64,000 nucleotides of DNA. It comes from an uncultured Bdellovibrionales bacterium. Lineage in GTDB: Bacteria > Bdellovibrionota > FAC87 > UBA2466. Position numbers and translations under genes: made by a program. The DNA lies in NCBI GenBank assembly GCA_937903155.1, contig CALCZU010000029.1, positions 4,861 through 68,860 of the forward strand, given 5' to 3'. The notes beneath the pieces were generated by a model. The model searched no databases. It worked only from the letters and a program-made list of their open reading frames with translations, and was not told the DNA's origin. Shown piece after piece: positions 44,688 to 52,018 of this stretch. The stretch's first letter is position 1. Each line of letters begins with the position of its first letter.

Positions 44688-44741
44688 AATCAACACGCTA
44701 TCCCTTTTGTAAGTTCTGTAAAATCTGTAAGAGTAGTAAAG

Positions 44742-46388
44742 ATGGTTCTCGCCGATTCGCATTTTCTTTTTATTGACTGCCAAACAACGGGTTTGACTGC
44801 CGAAAAAGCCGAAATCATCGAGCTGGGCTGGAGCTTTTCGTTTGATCAGGAAGAAATTCAAACAAGATTAATCCGTCCCGTCCGCCTGGAAAGCATTCCC
44901 AAAAAAGTGCTGACCATGACAGGAATCAACGAAAAAGAACTTGAGTCGGCTGAGAGTGCGGAGATAATTTGGAAACAGTTTCGCGACGCCGTCGAGGCGG
45001 CTCCCGTCCCTCTCACAGCGATCGTCATTCATTACGCTGCCTTCGAGACGCGTTTTTTAAATCATCTTCGAAAAGAATTCGGAGACTCTCCCGTTTTTGC
45101 ACTTCCTACTTTTTGCACCTATCAAATTGCTAAAAAACTTTACCCCGAGCTTCCTGCGCAGACTTTAAGAGCGCTGGGCGGGCATTTTGATTTTTCTCTA
45201 TCTGAGAAAACGCGCGCTTTCGATCATACTCTCGCCACTCAAAAAATCTGGTCAAAACTCTTAAACGAATTAAAAGAACAATCGATTCACACCGTGGAGG
45301 ATCTTCTTTCTTGGAAAAGTCGAAAGGCAAAAAAGCGCAAAATTTCTCGAAAGTATCTAGTCGAACGAGAGACCCGTCTCGGTTTTCCAGAGGGACCTGG
45401 AATTTACGAAATGCATTCCCGCAGTGGAAAAATTCTTTATATCGGAAAAGCTACCTGTCTCAATTCAAGGGTGAATAGTTATTTCCGGCAGAAACATTCA
45501 AAGAGGTCGCGAATCAATGAGCTTATGGCCCAAGTCGTCGAGGTTAAAGTCCGACAAACGCAGACTCCGCTCGAGGCAGCACTTCTCGAGAGCGATCGGA
45601 TTAAGGAAATCGAACCCCCTTACAACCATTCGCTCAAATCGAATTCTCGTAAGATCCTTTTTTTATCTCCTCAATTGGAGGACATTTCCCCGGTGTATGA
45701 ATTTAAACATCCCGTGGGTCCTTTTACCCACGACCAACCTTTTAATGGATTAGAGCGTCTTCTCCACGCGCAAAAAGGAGAATGGGAAGAACTCGACCCA
45801 TTTACAATGAAACATACGCCTGAAGAATTGAAAGATGCCGTCGAAACTCGTCTTTCAGCTTTAGGCTACGATCTCTCAAACTTAAATCTCCTAAAACTCT
45901 TGAGAGCGGGTAAAAAAATTCAACTGACGCCTAGATTCTCGAACGAAGTGACAGATGAAATTACAGAAGAAGTGGAAGAATCCTCCGAAGAATCGGTCGA
46001 AAGAAAATTATCAAACGCAGTTCGAAGTGTTCATGAAAAGCAATGGATCTGCTGGTTGATGGAATCGCGAGTCTTATGGAAACTTGATACGGGAGATTTC
46101 CGTTTTCTCTTACTCCAAAATGGAAAAATTACGGAGTCGGGATTTATAAAATCCCCCGAGCTGTTGGAACCGCTCAAACGCAAACGCTCGCCTCTTCAAA
46201 ACCGGAAGCTCAGAATCGATTTAAAAACTTACGATCGAATGCGTATTTTAATGAGTGAACTTTCAATGTTCGCAAGGCGAGGGATCGAAATCCAAGTTCA
46301 GTTTTCGCCGACGAGAACGTACGCGACAACGCCCAACGGTTCGCCCTCTTGGTGCACGCGCACTTTAAACAGGGAGAGAAATCATTGA
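44742..46388 (+). CDS. DnaQ-like exonuclease domain + GIY-YIG (UvrC/Cho-like) nuclease protein
   Basis: N-terminal FLFIDCQTTGL is a DEDD fold with Q in place of E. The GIY-YIG motif GIYEMHSRSGKILYIGKATCLNSRVNSYF...PYNHSLK follows. The C-terminal 250 aa are unknown. Confidence 0.75.
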   Translation: MVLADSHFLFIDCQTTGLTAEKAEIIELGWSFSFDQEEIQTRLIRPVRLESIPKKVLTMTGINEKELESAESAEIIWKQFRDAVEAAPVPLTAIVIHYAAFETRFLNHLRKEFGDSPVFALPTFCTYQIAKKLYPELPAQTLRALGGHFDFSLSEKTRAFDHTLATQKIWSKLLNELKEQSIHTVEDLLSWKSRKAKKRKISRKYLVERETRLGFPEGPGIYEMHSRSGKILYIGKATCLNSRVNSYFRQKHSKRSRINELMAQVVEVKVRQTQTPLEAALLESDRIKEIEPPYNHSLKSNSRKILFLSPQLEDISPVYEFKHPVGPFTHDQPFNGLERLLHAQKGEWEELDPFTMKHTPEELKDAVETRLSALGYDLSNLNLLKLLRAGKKIQLTPRFSNEVTDEITEEVEESSEESVERKLSNAVRSVHEKQWICWLMESRVLWKLDTGDFRFLLLQNGKITESGFIKSPELLEPLKRKRSPLQNRKLRIDLKTYDRMRILMSELSMFARRGIEIQVQFSPTRTYATTPNGSPSWCTRTLNRERNH

Positions 46389-48784
46389 AAACGAAGGTCT
46401 CTCTGTCAGTCCGTGATTTTGCACTGCCAGTTCCGCGAACGGGAAGTATCGAAACGCATTCCGGCTACGGACGGATGCCCGTAGAGGGGCAAGAAGTTCA
46501 TTTACGAATCCAAGAAAAGCGCTCAAAACAAAATTCGGAATACCAAGCTGAAGTCAAAATTGAGGCTGAGTTCGAACGCGAAGAATACCTCTTTCAAATC
46601 GGAGGGAGAATCGACGGCCTTTTCGCAAGTGATCCTCCCCATATCGAAGAAATCAAATCGGCTTTTAGCATCCAAGAGCTAACGAAAAAACTTATCTATC
46701 AATGGGATCATCCCTATTCACTCCAGCTACAAACCTATGGCTATTTTTATTTCTTAAAACACGGAATTGAACCAAAGCTGACATTTCATTTAGTTTCACT
46801 TCGCAACTTTCAGTCGGAAGACCTAAAAATTGCTTTTAATCGCGCTCAGTACGAGACCTATTTGAACCAGCGTTTAGAGGAACTCGTCAAAGAAACTCGC
46901 GAGAATGAAGCTCGAGCGCTCAAACGAAAAAAAATGGCATCCAAACTCACATTCCCTTTTGAAAACCCGCGAACCGGTCAAACGGATCTGATCGAGAGTA
47001 TCGAAAAGGGATTTCAAACGCACTCACGGATGCTCATTCAAGCCCCGACAGGCCTTGGGAAGACGATCGGTGTACTTTATCCGAGTTTAAAGGAATCGCT
47101 CGAGCGAGGGCAAAAAACGATTTACGTTACTCCCAAAAATAGCCAGCATTCCGTCGCTGAAGACGCGGTTGAGAGAATCCAGCAGGCGGGCGCAAAAATC
47201 AAATCGCTGACCATTACTGCAAAAAGTAAAATTTGTTTTAAGAACGAACCGCTTTGCAATCCCGACTATTGTGAGTACGCAAAAGATCATTACACAAAGC
47301 TTCATGAAAACAATGTCGTGGCTCTTCTTTCAAAAAAGAAAAAACTCACCCATCGGGTTTTCAGAGCCTTGGGCGAAGAGTTTCAAGTCTGCCCTTTCGA
47401 ATTGCAATTTGAAGCCGCTCAGGATGCGGACGCCGTGATTTGCGATTACAACTATGTTTTCTCCCCGCGAGCAAGTCTGGGTAGAATGGGCGTACCCACC
47501 CTAGGACAAACGGGAAAACCCAATTTAGTCATTGATGAAGCGCACAATCTTTTATCGCGAGCCATGGGATATTACTCGCCCGAACTTTCGACTTACGTTT
47601 TAGAAAAAATGCGTTTCTCCGTTCGCGAATTACCCTTACGATTTCGTTCGGATGCTGAAACGCTTTTAAATGACTGTCTACAGACGGTTAGCTCTTGCCG
47701 TCCTGAAGGTTCTACCCAGAGTGTTTTAATCGATCCTCCGAGGGCTATCTTCTTAGAACAAGAGGAGGATTTACGGAATTTTCTGTCTCGATATCTAGAG
47801 TCGGATGTCGAGATTCAACCACGCGATGTGGTCCTGCGACTCGTTTACTATTGGTCTCAGTTTACGGCCGCACTGGATTTTGTGGCAGAACCGAAAAGAC
47901 CTGAGTTTTTCACTTTTTTTCAACCGGAAAGAGTCGGCAATGGCGGCACCATTAAAATTGCTTGCTGTGATGCTTCGGAGATGCTCAAAGCCTGTTACGA
48001 CGAGTACGATCAGGTCGTGGGCTTTTCAGCAACTTTAAAACCTTTTCATTATTATGCAAAACTCTCTGGACTCGAGCTTGAAAAAATCAAGGTGGCCGAG
48101 TTTCAATCGCCGTTTCCTAAGACCAATCGCAAGGTTTTGATCATTCCTGAGATCTCCACAAAATATTCCAACCGAGAAAAAAATTACAAAAAAATTTCGG
48201 AAGTGATTCACAAAATTTCTCAAGTGAAACCTGGGAACTACTTTGCTTTTTTCCCCAGTTTTGAATTCCTTGAAAAAGTTGCCGCAGAATTTCGGGCACC
48301 CGAAGGTATCGAAGTGATCCGCCAACAAAAAGACATGAAAGCAAGCGAGATTGAGGGCGTCGTAGACCACTTGAAATCTCGGGTGCGTCCCACGATTGTG
48401 TTTGCGGTTCAGGGAGGCGTGTTTTCAGAGGGCGTCGATTACCCCGGAGAGACAATTATCGGAGCCTTTGTGATTGGTCCCCCTCTTCCGAAGTTTGATC
48501 TCGAGCGCGAAAAAATGCGCGAGTTCTATGACAAAACTTATCAATCTGGATTTGAATACGCCTACAGCTATCCCGCAATGGCGAAAGCCGTCCAATCCGC
48601 GGGACGGGTCATCCGGTCCGAGACAGATAGAGGGCTGATTGTTCTCATGGACAGTCGTTTTATCGAAATGGGCTATGCCTCTTCCATGCCGACCGATTGG
48701 TTTGAAACGAGCCCCCGCGAGCTTGTTTCCCAGGCTATCTTAAAAGAAGTAAAGGATTTCTGGACCGATCCGTTGACACCGTAA
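46385..48784 (+). CDS. RecB-like PD-(D/E)xK nuclease domain fused to XPD/DinG-family Fe-S helicase
   Basis: N-terminal GGRIDGLFASDPPHIEEIKS and QTYGY. Walker A QAPTGLGKT. A Fe-S cluster with four Cys (CFKN, LCNP, YCEY, VCPF). DEAH box VIDEAHNL and motif VI QSAGRVIR. TTG at 46385 after GGAGAG, overlapping the upstream stop; alternative starts are 46349 and 46475. Confidence 0.75.
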   Translation: MKTKVSLSVRDFALPVPRTGSIETHSGYGRMPVEGQEVHLRIQEKRSKQNSEYQAEVKIEAEFEREEYLFQIGGRIDGLFASDPPHIEEIKSAFSIQELTKKLIYQWDHPYSLQLQTYGYFYFLKHGIEPKLTFHLVSLRNFQSEDLKIAFNRAQYETYLNQRLEELVKETRENEARALKRKKMASKLTFPFENPRTGQTDLIESIEKGFQTHSRMLIQAPTGLGKTIGVLYPSLKESLERGQKTIYVTPKNSQHSVAEDAVERIQQAGAKIKSLTITAKSKICFKNEPLCNPDYCEYAKDHYTKLHENNVVALLSKKKKLTHRVFRALGEEFQVCPFELQFEAAQDADAVICDYNYVFSPRASLGRMGVPTLGQTGKPNLVIDEAHNLLSRAMGYYSPELSTYVLEKMRFSVRELPLRFRSDAETLLNDCLQTVSSCRPEGSTQSVLIDPPRAIFLEQEEDLRNFLSRYLESDVEIQPRDVVLRLVYYWSQFTAALDFVAEPKRPEFFTFFQPERVGNGGTIKIACCDASEMLKACYDEYDQVVGFSATLKPFHYYAKLSGLELEKIKVAEFQSPFPKTNRKVLIIPEISTKYSNREKNYKKISEVIHKISQVKPGNYFAFFPSFEFLEKVAAEFRAPEGIEVIRQQKDMKASEIEGVVDHLKSRVRPTIVFAVQGGVFSEGVDYPGETIIGAFVIGPPLPKFDLEREKMREFYDKTYQSGFEYAYSYPAMAKAVQSAGRVIRSETDRGLIVLMDSRFIEMGYASSMPTDWFETSPRELVSQAILKEVKDFWTDPLTP

Positions 48785-50254: not shown

Positions 50255-52018
50255 ATGCAAGCGGCGGCTCTCACAACGGTTTTCCACCAAGGCAAACATC
50301 AGGAAGTGGTGAATGAACTTTTGGGAAATACGACTCACGATGCGGAGACACTACCGCTTCTAATTGGCTCACTGTGTTTTTTAGGAAGACCTGAAGAAGC
50401 CGAAAGTTTCTTCGCAAAACGAGCCGATAGGAAAACACTCGCGGCGTGTCGATTCTATCTCGGCGTGGGGTTTTATCGAGTTTCCGCTTACGAAAAAGGA
50501 AAACGCTACTTCCACTCAAACCTCAAAGAGTTTAAGAATTCCACGAATCCGCTCACTCAATTTTACGTTGCCCAAGGAATGGGGTTTTCCCGCTATCTAG
50601 AGTGTCATTATGGGATCGCTTCAAGATGGGCGTTCAAGGCTCTTCTCTCTTCAAACGAAGCTCACTTTCTCTATGGCAGATACCTGGCATCCGATCTTTT
50701 AGGCTACACGAAAACGCTGTCCGGTAAGATTTCTGAAGGGTTGAAGTTTTTGAAAGAGTCCCGCGTTCTTGCTGAAAAACTAGGATCAGGCGCTTGGCTC
50801 GATGCCGCAACCGCCGCCATCCTGTGCTACGAAGCGCAGTTCGGATTAAAACCAAAGACGATCTTAAAAGAACTCGATAGATGTTACTCCAAACTCAACG
50901 AAGACCTGACTTACTTAAAATCAGGAGTGTTACTTGAAAAGGCAAGGCAGTTAACCCTACGAGGAAGAATCGAAGATTCAAATGAAGTGCTCAATAACGC
51001 TTTTCGTTTGATTTATTCTTCCAAACACAAGCGCCAAGGGGTTCTTTTAAATTTAAGACTTTCTGAAAACCGGTTTCTTCGAGGAGAGCACTACGAAGCG
51101 CTCAATCTTATTCGCAGCACACACGGGGAACTCGATCCAAAAGTGGATCAGCAGCTTTTCCTATCGACAAAAGGAATGGAGAAAAAGCTTTGCAACGCAC
51201 TCTCTCTTCCGTTTTTTTGTAAGGAGTATGATTCCCTGACTCTTTTAAGGGGGAACAGCGTCGCGCAAAGAATTTTTAATCGGGAGAATGGAAAATTTTC
51301 CCGCGGGCCTTCAGAAGATAAAATCGCAGAACTTTTGGATCAAGTCGCTAGGTCAAAAGGCGCTTCAATTGATGAAATCATCCAATCCGACTACTTAGGC
51401 TTTTTATTTCCGCTTCTTCCAAAAAGTAACGCGAAGATCAGAATTTTTCCGGACTTGTCTCGAAATTTTATCTTGGTTCTAGAAAATGGAAATTTGAAAC
51501 TCATCAAGAAAAACCACTCGCTTCAAATCAATCAACTTTTAAAAGTTCTATCCAAAGGAAGCGCTTCAAAAGCAGTTATGGTCAAACAACTTTGGGGTTA
51601 CGATTACCATCCCTTAAGACATGATCCTTTGCTATACCGGTTGATAGGAAGAACCAAAAAACACCTTGAAATCGAAAGCACTTGGTTAGAGACCACTCCT
51701 CGAGGCTATCAATTGTCTCAAGATATTTCGATTTTGTTTGTTAACGCCGAATCCACGCCGTCTCTTCCGGAACCCAATGAAATCGATTGGGTACCAGAGC
51801 CGCTGACGGAGTTAAATCACCGACAGCTGAAAATCCTTCAAATACTTAAGAAAAAGGATTTCTTAGACGTCCAGGAGATTCAAAAGTCTTTCAAAGTCTC
51901 GCCCATCACCGCCTCACGCGACTTGTCAGACCTTTTTAAAAAGGGAAAACTCTTCCGCTGCGGCAAAGCGAGGGCGACAAAATACGGACTTCCCAATTCA
52001 AACCAAATGGAGCAATAA
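50255..52018 (+). CDS. Helical-repeat protein with C-terminal DeoR-like winged HTH
   Basis: C-terminal LNHRQLKILQILKKKDFLDVQEIQKSFKVSPITASRDLSDL. Confidence 0.55.
   Translation: MQAAALTTVFHQGKHQEVVNELLGNTTHDAETLPLLIGSLCFLGRPEEAESFFAKRADRKTLAACRFYLGVGFYRVSAYEKGKRYFHSNLKEFKNSTNPLTQFYVAQGMGFSRYLECHYGIASRWAFKALLSSNEAHFLYGRYLASDLLGYTKTLSGKISEGLKFLKESRVLAEKLGSGAWLDAATAAILCYEAQFGLKPKTILKELDRCYSKLNEDLTYLKSGVLLEKARQLTLRGRIEDSNEVLNNAFRLIYSSKHKRQGVLLNLRLSENRFLRGEHYEALNLIRSTHGELDPKVDQQLFLSTKGMEKKLCNALSLPFFCKEYDSLTLLRGNSVAQRIFNRENGKFSRGPSEDKIAELLDQVARSKGASIDEIIQSDYLGFLFPLLPKSNAKIRIFPDLSRNFILVLENGNLKLIKKNHSLQINQLLKVLSKGSASKAVMVKQLWGYDYHPLRHDPLLYRLIGRTKKHLEIESTWLETTPRGYQLSQDISILFVNAESTPSLPEPNEIDWVPEPLTELNHRQLKILQILKKKDFLDVQEIQKSFKVSPITASRDLSDLFKKGKLFRCGKARATKYGLPNSNQMEQ

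Follow-up and report, generated by a model that had tools for sequence, protein, structure and literature searches.

Layout of the locus

Two overlapping genes lie on the forward (+) strand of the window, the whole 64,000-nucleotide stretch from an uncultured Bdellovibrionales bacterium that was analysed here; all features given below are on the same strand. Both open reading frames (ORFs) were confirmed as they had been drawn in the preliminary description. Gene 1 (44742..46388) encodes a protein of 548 aa in which a DEDD-like and a GIY-YIG domain precede a new C-terminal one, according to the ORF, its homologues, their alignment and an AlphaFold2 model (pLDDT 92.7, pTM 0.90). Gene 2 (46385..48784) encodes 799 aa from a TTG start and is assigned to EndoDinG from its ORF and its alignment with PDB chain 9kqh_A.

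The TTG of gene 2 (46385-46387) shares the letters TTGA with the TGA stop of gene 1 (46386-46388). A Shine-Dalgarno-like sequence, GGGAGAG (46372..46378; first described as GGAGAG), is found within the end of gene 1, 6 nt 5' of the TTG. These features uphold the proposed translational coupling, which would hold the two proteins at matched levels. An identical 4-nt overlap is present in L001 and L003, the loci of the closest relatives. An upstream TTG at 46349 would allow a longer gene 2 ORF, but in the homologues and in PDB 9KQH the first residue corresponds to the one encoded at 46385 (MKxxxLSVRD). Promoter and terminator scans within the window gave matches at chance level only, and a search of the regions upstream of the pairs for LexA-box-like motifs (TTACN3GTAA or CTGTN8ACAG) gave none.

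The upstream neighbour of gene 1, earlier described as an OPA transporter gene, matches MFS_1. Genes within about 5 kb encode the MFS transporter, sugar-nucleotide enzymes and small secreted proteins. No mobile-element gene was seen among the ORFs of 40-53 kb and G+C is uniform (0.42-0.47), in agreement with the earlier view that the pair is not flanked by mobile-element genes.

Gene 2 encodes an EndoDinG

By its sequence, gene 2 is an EndoDinG: a PD-(D/E)xK nuclease fused to an XPD/DinG helicase with a four-cysteine Fe-S cluster. The EndoDinG subgroup was defined in 2025 (PMC11981726), and its first member, Finegoldia magna FmaDinG (PDB 9KQH), was characterised in July 2026 (PMC13650095). The architecture, which had not been recognised as any named system, already has both a name and a characterised member. 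Gene 2 aligns end to end with FmaDinG (9kqh_A, E 1.6e-92; query 1-772, chain 1-747), which is only a distant relative (314 bits). Gene 2 is 60-69% identical to more than 100 clusters.

The N-terminal RecB-like PD-(D/E)xK domain (aa 1-180; 46385..46924) has no Pfam match and was recognised from the alignment with FmaDinG. Its residues H39, E56, D77 (in GRIDG) and E89-x-K91 (in IEEIK, which also contains E88) align with H40, E54, D75 and E88-x-K90 of FmaDinG, and R10 aligns with R10. Roles for these six FmaDinG residues are given in the available text of PMC13650095. The catalytic residues are invariant in alignment A4. The domain had been called RecB/Cas4-like; the RecB likeness stands, but the domain contains no cysteine and is thus not Cas4-like in the Fe-S sense.

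The XPD/DinG SF2 helicase core (aa 190-772; 46952..48700) is supported by Pfam, by structures and by alignment A4. Pfam matches begin at about aa 190 (DEAD, DEAD_2, HBB and Helicase_C_2), archaeal XPD structures match at 1e-42, and the residues of the Walker A motif (APTGLGKT) and the DEAH box are invariant in A4. The Fe-S cluster region (47234..47392) contains C284, C291, C296 and C336, all of which are invariant in the same alignment. It aligns with the FmaDinG stretch bearing C289 and C294, the two cysteines that were mutated to disrupt the Fe-S cluster of that protein (PMC13650095). The Fe-S domain is thus of the canonical four-cysteine type, not the pseudo-FeS type of CasDinG or ExoDinG. 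The FmaDinG alignment and the Pfam core together bear out the description of an N-terminal PD-(D/E)xK nuclease joined to a complete Fe-S helicase.

FmaDinG is reported as an ATP-dependent 5'-3' helicase and a Mn2+-preferring endonuclease (PMC13650095, available text). By analogy with this homologue, the gene 2 product may act as a 5'-3' helicase whose PD-(D/E)xK domain cuts the single strand fed to it by the motor.

Gene 1 encodes a Cho-like protein with an altered DEDD site

The uncharacterised, Cho-like family to which gene 1 belongs is large and comprises about 1000 clusters at 50% identity; about 80 full-length homologues were retrieved, and the family was aligned (alignment A1). Pfam assigns aa 9-159 to RNase_T (E 1e-12) and aa 220-292 to GIY-YIG (E 8e-6), and neither Pfam nor NCBIfam assigns anything past about aa 320. 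The match to NCBIfam NF005906 covers aa 1-320. NCBIfam matches also include DinG models; the best NCBIfam score is 174 bits, against a curated cut-off of 495.

The first domain (aa 9-195; 44766..45326) has a DnaQ/PolC-exonuclease-like fold, as indicated by Pfam, HMMER (which aligns it to the PolC exonuclease 2p1j), alignment A1 and Foldseek. The DnaQ-like fold that had been proposed is therefore present, but the DEDDh catalytic set is not. The site is non-canonical (D12, Q14, E102 and H162) and reads D-Q-E-x-H systematically across the family. D12, Q14 and H162 occur in at least 90% of members; H97, F101 and E102 are invariant; the position of the general-base His is variable. Gene 1 family motifs are DxQ, HYAxFE and xRxxxH, whereas canonical Exo+GIY-YIG proteins have DxE, HNxxFD and HRAxxD. 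With a family-wide change of E to Q and of the fourth Asp to His, and with the general-base His lost, the earlier count of three nuclease folds overstates the catalytic content of the pair. As the domain lacks a two-metal exonuclease site, we infer that it may serve as a DNA-end or protein-binding module.

The GIY-YIG nuclease domain (aa 214-305; 45381..45656) is of the UvrC/Cho type, as first described. It is identified by Pfam, by a match of the family profile to the UvrC N-terminal domain (1yd6, 2.5e-27), which is its closest relative, and by alignment A1, in which Y222, Y233, G235, R243, E278, E283 and N295 are invariant. The catalytic residues are thus intact, and the protein is predicted to be a Cho-like nicking endonuclease.

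The C-terminal domain (aa 306-548, about 250 aa; 45657..46385) is confidently modelled and contains the motifs GPF, RARWL and TYDRMRVL and an invariant D498. No related domain was found among solved structures; the region proved as hard to assign as had been reported. From aa 296 to aa 530 the only cysteine is C440, which rules out a C4 cluster, and no UVR motif was found in gene 1, though protein P0083 has one. In the model, the GIY-YIG, DnaQ-like and family-specific C-terminal domains form one rigid body.

Comparison with known systems

Like FmaDinG and the DinG of Bdellovibrio bacteriovorus HD100, gene 2 combines a PD-(D/E)xK domain, an MD1 with a four-cysteine Fe-S domain and Arch, and an MD2; Bdellovibrionales are among the lineages listed for EndoDinG (PMC11981726 and the available text of PMC13650095). 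It differs in its translational coupling to a Cho-like nuclease, whereas EndoDinG is a stand-alone protein in the literature available.

Gene 1 most resembles the Exo+Cho or Cho-like+Exo proteins (Mycobacterium Rv2191 type; PRK07883, 'DEDD exonuclease domain-containing protein'), which also have an N-terminal epsilon/PolC-like fold followed by a UvrC/Cho-type GIY-YIG domain. Described members retain DEDDh, in contrast to the D-Q-E-x-H of gene 1, and some have a UVR (UvrB-binding) motif, which gene 1 does not. In these proteins the nuclease domains are followed by a Cys-rich region and then by a Cho C-terminal or UvrB-binding domain (Dunin-Horkawicz et al. 2006, PMC1564403). Matches of gene 1 to Cho, UvrC and PRK07883 end at about aa 305-320, and a different domain of about 250 aa follows. 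Without Cys-rich, UvrB-binding and Cho C-terminal regions, and with scores far below the NCBIfam cut-offs, gene 1 does not form an ordinary Cho and DinG pair with gene 2.

In ExoDinG (Staphylococcus aureus DinG, PDB 8ZEF) a DEDD-type domain also works with a DinG helicase, and the exonuclease domain of this protein (8zef) is the top Foldseek match for the DEDD-like domain of gene 1. This match, together with the DinG models among the NCBIfam matches of gene 1, is a hint, of the Rosetta-stone type, that the products of genes 1 and 2 may act together. The altered site of gene 1 also recalls pExoDinG, which carries a pseudo-exonuclease domain (PMC11981726). In ExoDinG and pExoDinG, however, the domain is fused to the helicase; in the present pair it is found on a separate protein with a GIY-YIG domain, and the helicase has a PD-(D/E)xK nuclease of its own.

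Two candidate identities were rejected. Gene 2 is not the CasDinG of type IV CRISPR, as it has four Fe-S cysteines rather than a degenerate Fe-S domain, and there are no csf or cas neighbours within about 5 kb. Nor is the pair a named system of PADLOC-DB 2.0, since the two proteins do not both match the models of any one system.

Linkage of the two genes

In Bdellovibrionota, Melainabacteria and Legionellaceae, and thus in three phyla, the two genes lie side by side, in one order or the other and often with an overlap; the possibility that the genes never co-occur outside the source genome can be discarded. Among the 80 genome loci at which a gene 1 homologue was found, 30 have a DinG gene on the same strand and at most 190 nt away. 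Several of these pairs overlap by 4 or 8 nt, and both orders occur. Pairing is concentrated in the window-like, Legionellaceae, Melainabacteria and Bdellovibrio/Bacteriovorax clades (31 of 37 loci), and homologues from Myxococcota and Acidobacteriota are mostly unpaired. Seen from the helicase, linkage is infrequent: gene 1 is present at only 3 of 80 metagenome loci with EndoDinG or DinG-like genes, and, when only loci with 1.7 kb or more on each side and an identity of 44% or higher are counted, at 2 of 15.

The two products could be independent repair enzymes which share an operon in some lineages, EndoDinG acting alone and gene 1 being a stand-alone or UvrB-independent Cho-like nuclease, with no coupling between them. 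Gene 1 is absent from most EndoDinG loci, about half of the gene 1 loci have no DinG neighbour and adjoin a dinB or metallophosphoesterase gene instead, and paired EndoDinGs show no partner-specific residues or other sequence signature. However, adjacency in both orders, with overlaps of 4-8 nt or gaps below 100 nt, in three phyla and on plasmids, exceeds what operon drift usually preserves, and in Firmicutes DinG carries, as part of the same polypeptide, a DEDD domain of the structural subtype seen in gene 1. Independent action is thus unlikely. Pairing is optional in any case: the majority of EndoDinGs, like an entire clade of the gene 1 family, do without the other gene.

Repair or defence

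The preliminary description left the role of the pair between chromosomal repair and anti-phage defence. Repair is now favoured. On plasmids of Legionella lytica and L. longbeachae, genes for UdgX and Ku are followed by EndoDinG with gene 1, and then by dinB, a Y-family polymerase, umuD, an SOS-response-associated peptidase (SRAP) and an endonuclease, so that Ku/UdgX genes flank the pair on one side and dinB/umuDC/SRAP genes on the other. Gene 1 homologues of Acidobacteriota have the gene of a Y-family DinB polymerase immediately downstream. At locus L130, an EndoDinG has a FAN1-like crosslink-repair nuclease as its translationally coupled partner. Because the pair travels together in three phyla beside DNA-damage genes, its role is most likely in DNA repair and not in phage defence.

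In a defence role, the helicase would track along phage or plasmid DNA and two or three nuclease domains would destroy the target, as happens with other defence pairs of this type. Nuclease-helicase pairs are common in defence systems, the distribution across phyla is patchy, the pair occurs on Legionella plasmids, and full-length EndoDinG-like genes of about 30% identity are found in phage-labelled records. DinG-family helicases are also used by type IV CRISPR, and the PADLOC typeIV_DinG model matches gene 2 at 373 bits. This match, however, is generic and covers the helicase core only; the others in PADLOC-DB 2.0 are a DEDDh accessory match and a weak PDC-S48 match on the DEDD region, and neither protein is matched by a model specific to one defence system. 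In the window and at L001, L003 and L005, none of the genes seen beside the pair is a cas, restriction-modification, toxin or integrase gene. The plasmid neighbours (Ku, UdgX, dinB, umuDC and SRAP) are not defence genes, the flanks are housekeeping genes, and G+C is uniform. Defence genes are rarely as conserved as this helicase, with its 60-69% identity to more than 100 clusters. A defence function is therefore quite unlikely.

A substrate of RNA or RNA-DNA hybrids (R-loops or unprocessed rRNA) instead of damaged DNA is very improbable: Listeria ExoDinG is reported to clear unprocessed rRNA (PMC12774634, available text), CasDinG unwinds RNA-DNA hybrids (reviewed in PMC11981726) and DEDD folds, including the RNase T that gene 1 matches, often act on RNA, but the nearest relative of the GIY-YIG domain is the DNA-incision domain of UvrC, the genes conserved nearby are those of DNA damage, and key catalytic residues have been lost from the DEDD-like site.

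Proposed role

The locus probably encodes a DNA-damage processing module, in which a helicase-nuclease works with a nicking partner. The helicase would track 5'-3' until it meets a replication-blocking lesion, a crosslink, or a stalled-fork or gap structure. At that point the partner would nick the DNA with its GIY-YIG domain, in the manner of UvrC-N and Cho, which cut 3' of a lesion. The nicked strand would then be unwound and degraded by the helicase and its PD-(D/E)xK domain, leaving a gap for a repair or translesion polymerase to fill. Here we infer both the type of lesion and the order of nicking, unwinding and degradation.

In archaea and eukaryotes, XPD pairs with incision nucleases, as in XPD-Bax1 and in TFIIH with XPG and XPF. 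The present pair is similar in that an Fe-S XPD-family 5'-3' helicase is predicted to be paired with structure-specific nucleases; it differs in that the nucleases come from unrelated families. A further, speculative and rather unlikely reading is that the pair forms the core of a UvrABC-independent, XPD-centred bacterial excision pathway, in which the helicase verifies damage, two nucleases cut and the whole spreads horizontally. If so, stalling of the Fe-S helicase at a bulky lesion or crosslink would constitute verification, as with XPD in archaea and eukaryotes; the damaged strand would be cut by the GIY-YIG partner in trans and by PD-(D/E)xK in cis; the DEDD-like domain, now repurposed, and the C-terminal domain would attach the partner to the stalled helicase or to the 3' end; and the module would move horizontally as a unit, plasmids included.

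The linkage of EndoDinG with gene 1 appears to be unreported. The terms 'GIY-YIG' and 'neighbor' do not occur in the review that defines the subgroup, which treats EndoDinG as stand-alone (PMC11981726), and the available text of the FmaDinG paper names no partner (PMC13650095). The linkage is a lead to the role of EndoDinG in vivo.

Organisation of the gene pair

Gene 1 (44742-46388, plus strand, 548 aa) and gene 2 (46385-48784, plus strand, 799 aa counted from the TTG at 46385) overlap in the window: the TGA stop codon of the first is shared with the TTG start codon of the second, giving TTGA. The sequence GGGAGAG lies 6 nt 5' of this TTG. An alternative TTG at 46349 would lengthen gene 2 by 12 residues; the residue encoded at 46385 is the first residue both in gene 2 homologues and in the crystal-structure protein 9KQH. 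The same 4-nt overlap is found in the closest relatives (L001 and L003). The two overlapping genes that the preliminary description placed at 44742-48784 are confirmed by the ORFs, TTGA, GGGAGAG, the homologue starts and the overlap in these relatives.

Genes for sugar-nucleotide enzymes, a methyltransferase and an MFS transporter lie upstream of the pair; small secreted proteins, a DeoR-HTH protein and a trypsin-like protease are encoded downstream, and G+C content is uniform around the pair. An ORF of 587 aa at 50255-52018 has a DeoR-type HTH only at its C-terminus (aa 523-568); the 520 residues before it have no Pfam match.

Gene 2 encodes an EndoDinG

Pfam domains DEAD, DEAD_2, HBB and Helicase_C_2 are found in gene 2 from about aa 190, and a Pfam search of the first 180 residues gave no match. 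In a search of PDB sequences, residues 1-772 align with residues 1-747 of 9kqh_A (E 1.6e-92). This is Finegoldia magna FmaDinG, which the available text of its description (July 2026; PMC13650095) gives as the first EndoDinG to be characterised. The subgroup owes its name to a 2025 review, where the example in the available text is the DinG of Bdellovibrio bacteriovorus HD100 (PMC11981726). Gene 2, half of a pair initially not recognised as any named system, is by this end-to-end alignment a member of a known, very recently characterised subgroup.

The nuclease residues of FmaDinG in the available text are R10, H40, E54, D75, E88 and K90 (PMC13650095); in the alignment with 9kqh_A their gene 2 counterparts are R10, H39, E56, D77 (in GRIDG) and E89-x-K91 (in IEEIK). 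These residues are invariant across 19 relatives, as are the Fe-S cysteines (C284, C291, C296, C336) and the Walker A and DEAH residues. The PD-(D/E)xK nuclease had been called RecB/Cas4-like. The domain is real by the 9kqh_A alignment and is RecB-like rather than Cas4-like, because it contains no cysteine. More than 100 clusters (90% identity level), including Oligoflexia, Bdellovibrionales and Geobacteraceae, share 60-69% identity with gene 2 along its full length; the EndoDinG family is strikingly conservative. FmaDinG is a Mn2+-preferring endonuclease and 5'-3' helicase, and its digestion into duplex DNA requires ATP, according to the available text (PMC13650095).

Full-length EndoDinG-like ORFs with about 30% identity, N-terminal region included, also occur in ten phage-labelled records (H16-H25), for example MT835862.1 (2653-4980) and OR846743.1 (11841-14162). 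The records are unannotated; their labels are Listeria or Enterococcus phages and gut 'Bacteriophage sp.'.

Gene 1 as a variant Exo+Cho protein

Gene 1 matches Pfam RNase_T (aa 9-159) and GIY-YIG (aa 220-292). Among 60 aligned family members the GIY-YIG residues Y222, Y233, G235, R243, E278, E283 and N295 do not vary, and the family profile matches the UvrC N-terminal domain 1yd6 (2.5e-27), bearing out the earlier assignment to the UvrC/Cho type.

The DnaQ-like DEDD domain that had been described in gene 1 stands as a fold but not as a DEDDh active site. The best Foldseek match is the exonuclease domain of Staphylococcus aureus ExoDinG (8zef), followed by the PolC exonuclease. Across the family, DxE is changed to DxQ (Q14 in 90% or more of the proteins) and HNAxFD to H(Y/F)AxFE, with E102 invariant. 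In HRAxxD the position of the general-base His varies, and a near-invariant His (H162) takes the place of the Asp. Canonical Exo+GIY-YIG proteins recovered in the same search differ in retaining DxE, HNxxFD and HRAxxD; they match RNase_T at 1e-32 to 1e-35, and one bears a UVR motif. Because the motifs are altered family-wide whereas canonical proteins keep theirs, the gene 1 site is conserved but not of the two-metal DEDDh kind. The domain may serve in binding or have a changed catalytic function.

Full-length gene 1 is modelled as a single rigid body (pLDDT 92.7, pTM 0.90); in this model the C-terminal domain (about aa 306-548) is predicted confidently, and it has no solved relatives. The gene 1 family is large and unannotated, with about 1000 clusters (1005 in the search with the C-terminal domain). 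Among the best 150 of these 1005 clusters no natural fusion of the C-terminal domain to a helicase was found, and the longest protein has 637 aa. About a quarter of the best C-terminal domain matches are proteins of 285-390 aa whose C-terminal domain begins around residue 30-100 (P0225, P0235, P0246, P0247, P0251, P0261, P0271 and similar); they represent either a GIY-YIG plus C-terminal form without a DEDD-like part or fragments encoded on short contigs.

Known families cover only part of gene 1. The NCBIfam models for actinobacterial 'DEDD exonuclease domain-containing protein' (PRK07883, Rv2191 type) match aa 1-320 only, at 174 bits against a cut-off of 495, and the UvrC and Cho models cover only the GIY-YIG domain. 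A 2006 survey of GIY-YIG proteins described 'Cho+Exo' and 'Cho-like+Exo' architectures, in which a Cys-rich region precedes either a Cho C-terminal domain or one for UvrB binding (PMC1564403); gene 1 differs in having neither the Cys-rich region nor either of these domains. It is a variant of the Exo+Cho theme which fails three of its defining features. The pair could have been an ordinary Cho plus DinG, with no PD-(D/E)xK domain; this is ruled out because that domain is real in gene 2 and gene 1 fails these three features.

Linkage of gene 1 and EndoDinG

A survey with one genome per species yielded 80 gene 1 loci. In 30 of these a same-strand DinG gene lies within 190 nt of the gene 1 homologue, usually upstream of it, opposite to the gene order seen in the window; four further loci have a DinG gene within 2 kb. 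When gene 1 proteins were grouped by average-linkage clustering, 31 of 37 loci were paired in four clades: the window-like clade, Legionellaceae, Melainabacteria/Obscuribacterales, and Bdellovibrio/Bacteriovorax. The last includes B. bacteriovorus, where the gene 1 homologue of strains Bd5 and Bd16 adjoins the EndoDinG gene. Pairing is found at 4 of 41 loci in Myxococcota, Acidobacteriota and other clades, where DinG is distant or loosely placed. Searching from the other side, gene 1 is present in only three of 80 metagenome loci found via EndoDinG (L116, L121, L138), and in two of the 15 EndoDinG loci that reach 44% identity and have 1.7 kb or more on each side.

The linkage is genuine, occurring in three phyla, in both gene orders and with overlapping frames, and co-occurrence beyond this genome is thus established. 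It is obligatory for neither gene. Comparison of paired and unpaired EndoDinGs gave no partner-specific residues or tails, only three weak columns from which the window sequence deviates. Stand-alone EndoDinG genes in the metagenome loci have no other universal neighbour.

Genomic context and regulation

The preliminary description proposed a role in repair or anti-phage defence. PADLOC matches were confined to a generic model of the DinG helicase and an accessory DEDDh model, and the defence reading is unlikely; genomic context points to DNA damage, and the repair reading is favoured. Relatives of the pair are located among metabolic genes. On plasmids of Legionella lytica (pLlyPCM2298_2, L168, 4720-13442) and L. 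longbeachae (pB1445CHC_73K, L169, 5579-14442) the two genes overlap by 8 nt inside a DNA-damage island. Both plasmids carry dinB, a Y-family polymerase, umuD and an endonuclease; UdgX and Ku are encoded upstream of the pair on the L. lytica plasmid only, and an SOS-response-associated peptidase (SRAP) on the L. longbeachae plasmid only.

Unpaired gene 1 homologues have no universal neighbour, only lineage-specific ones. A Y-family DinB polymerase gene adjoins the DinG-less homologue, usually directly 3', at seven loci (mostly Acidobacteriota), and a gene for a calcineurin-like metallophosphoesterase of about 340 aa, usually 3', at six (Myxococcota, Acidobacteriota and others). Loci listed for one or other neighbour are L047 (7711-8955), L059 (7750-8994), L039, L058, L070, L009, L038 (7695-8699), L053 (7745-8788) and L054 (2988-4052). 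The large upstream ORFs of L038 and L053 were rejected as a common neighbour; they are unrelated, one being adhesin-like and the other having no Pfam match.

At the metagenome locus L130 the start codon of a FAN1-like nuclease gene (6337-8061; FAN1_HTH and VRR_NUC) overlaps the EndoDinG stop codon (ATGA). In 12 further metagenome loci (L149, L151, L153, L154, L156-L158, L161-L163, L165, L166) a more distant DinG-like helicase, 28-31% identical to gene 2, has a FAN1-like gene ending about 100 nt before it. FAN1-like nucleases and XPD-family helicases may form a second conserved repair pairing.

SOS regulation of the pair is rejected: neither the window nor the upstream regions of 26 pairs contain a box of the form TTACN3GTAA or CTGTN8ACAG. 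A promoter and terminator scan of the window gave results at chance level. At 44708-44730, 12-34 nt 5' of the gene 1 ATG, TGTAA occurs three times as a direct repeat with a period of 9 nt (TGTAAgttcTGTAAaatcTGTAAgag); the copies are absent upstream of L001 and L003 and are possibly due to chance. A palindromic motif, TACCATAC(A/G)TAnnTATG(T/G), is common to loci of Melainabacteria and Obscuribacterales; in L075 it reads TACATAGCTATGTA. It occurs once per 13-kb locus, 20-90 nt 5' of the EndoDinG start (L010 3512, L017 3451, L020 3455, L046 3556, L074 3078, L075 3463, L085 3354; a variant in L028). The palindrome, which we take to be unlike cyanobacterial LexA boxes, looks like a candidate operator for some regulator.

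Proposed role and significance

On balance the pair is probably a DNA-damage processing module whose two proteins cooperate functionally; any specific order of steps is considerably less certain. The GIY-YIG domains of UvrC-N and Cho nick DNA 3' of lesions. The gene 1 protein might likewise nick at a lesion or structure engaged by the helicase; the nicked strand would then be removed by the helicase-nuclease and the gap filled by a polymerase. The DEDD-like and C-terminal domains of gene 1 could provide contacts to DNA ends or proteins. Coupling of a 5'-3' helicase to endonucleolytic degradation by PD-(D/E)xK is known from the homologue FmaDinG, in the available text on that protein (PMC13650095).

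The available text of two EndoDinG papers (PMC11981726, PMC13650095) makes no mention of GIY-YIG, UvrC or a neighbouring gene, and no description of the pair was found in the literature searched. As that coverage is incomplete, the linkage is only provisionally regarded as unreported.

In the available text, the authors of the FmaDinG study describe the in vivo role and partners of EndoDinG as unknown (PMC13650095). A conserved, translationally coupled Cho-like neighbour is a concrete candidate partner, and it is present in B. bacteriovorus, the species of the review's HD100 reference protein; the Legionella plasmid islands allow a concrete hypothesis on the pathway. The locus further brings to light a sizeable nuclease family that has no annotation. 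Its rewired DnaQ-like site and its C-terminal domain without solved relatives lend themselves readily to biochemistry and structure determination. The pair is of moderate interest because, besides defining this family, it offers a testable lead to the physiological role of EndoDinG.
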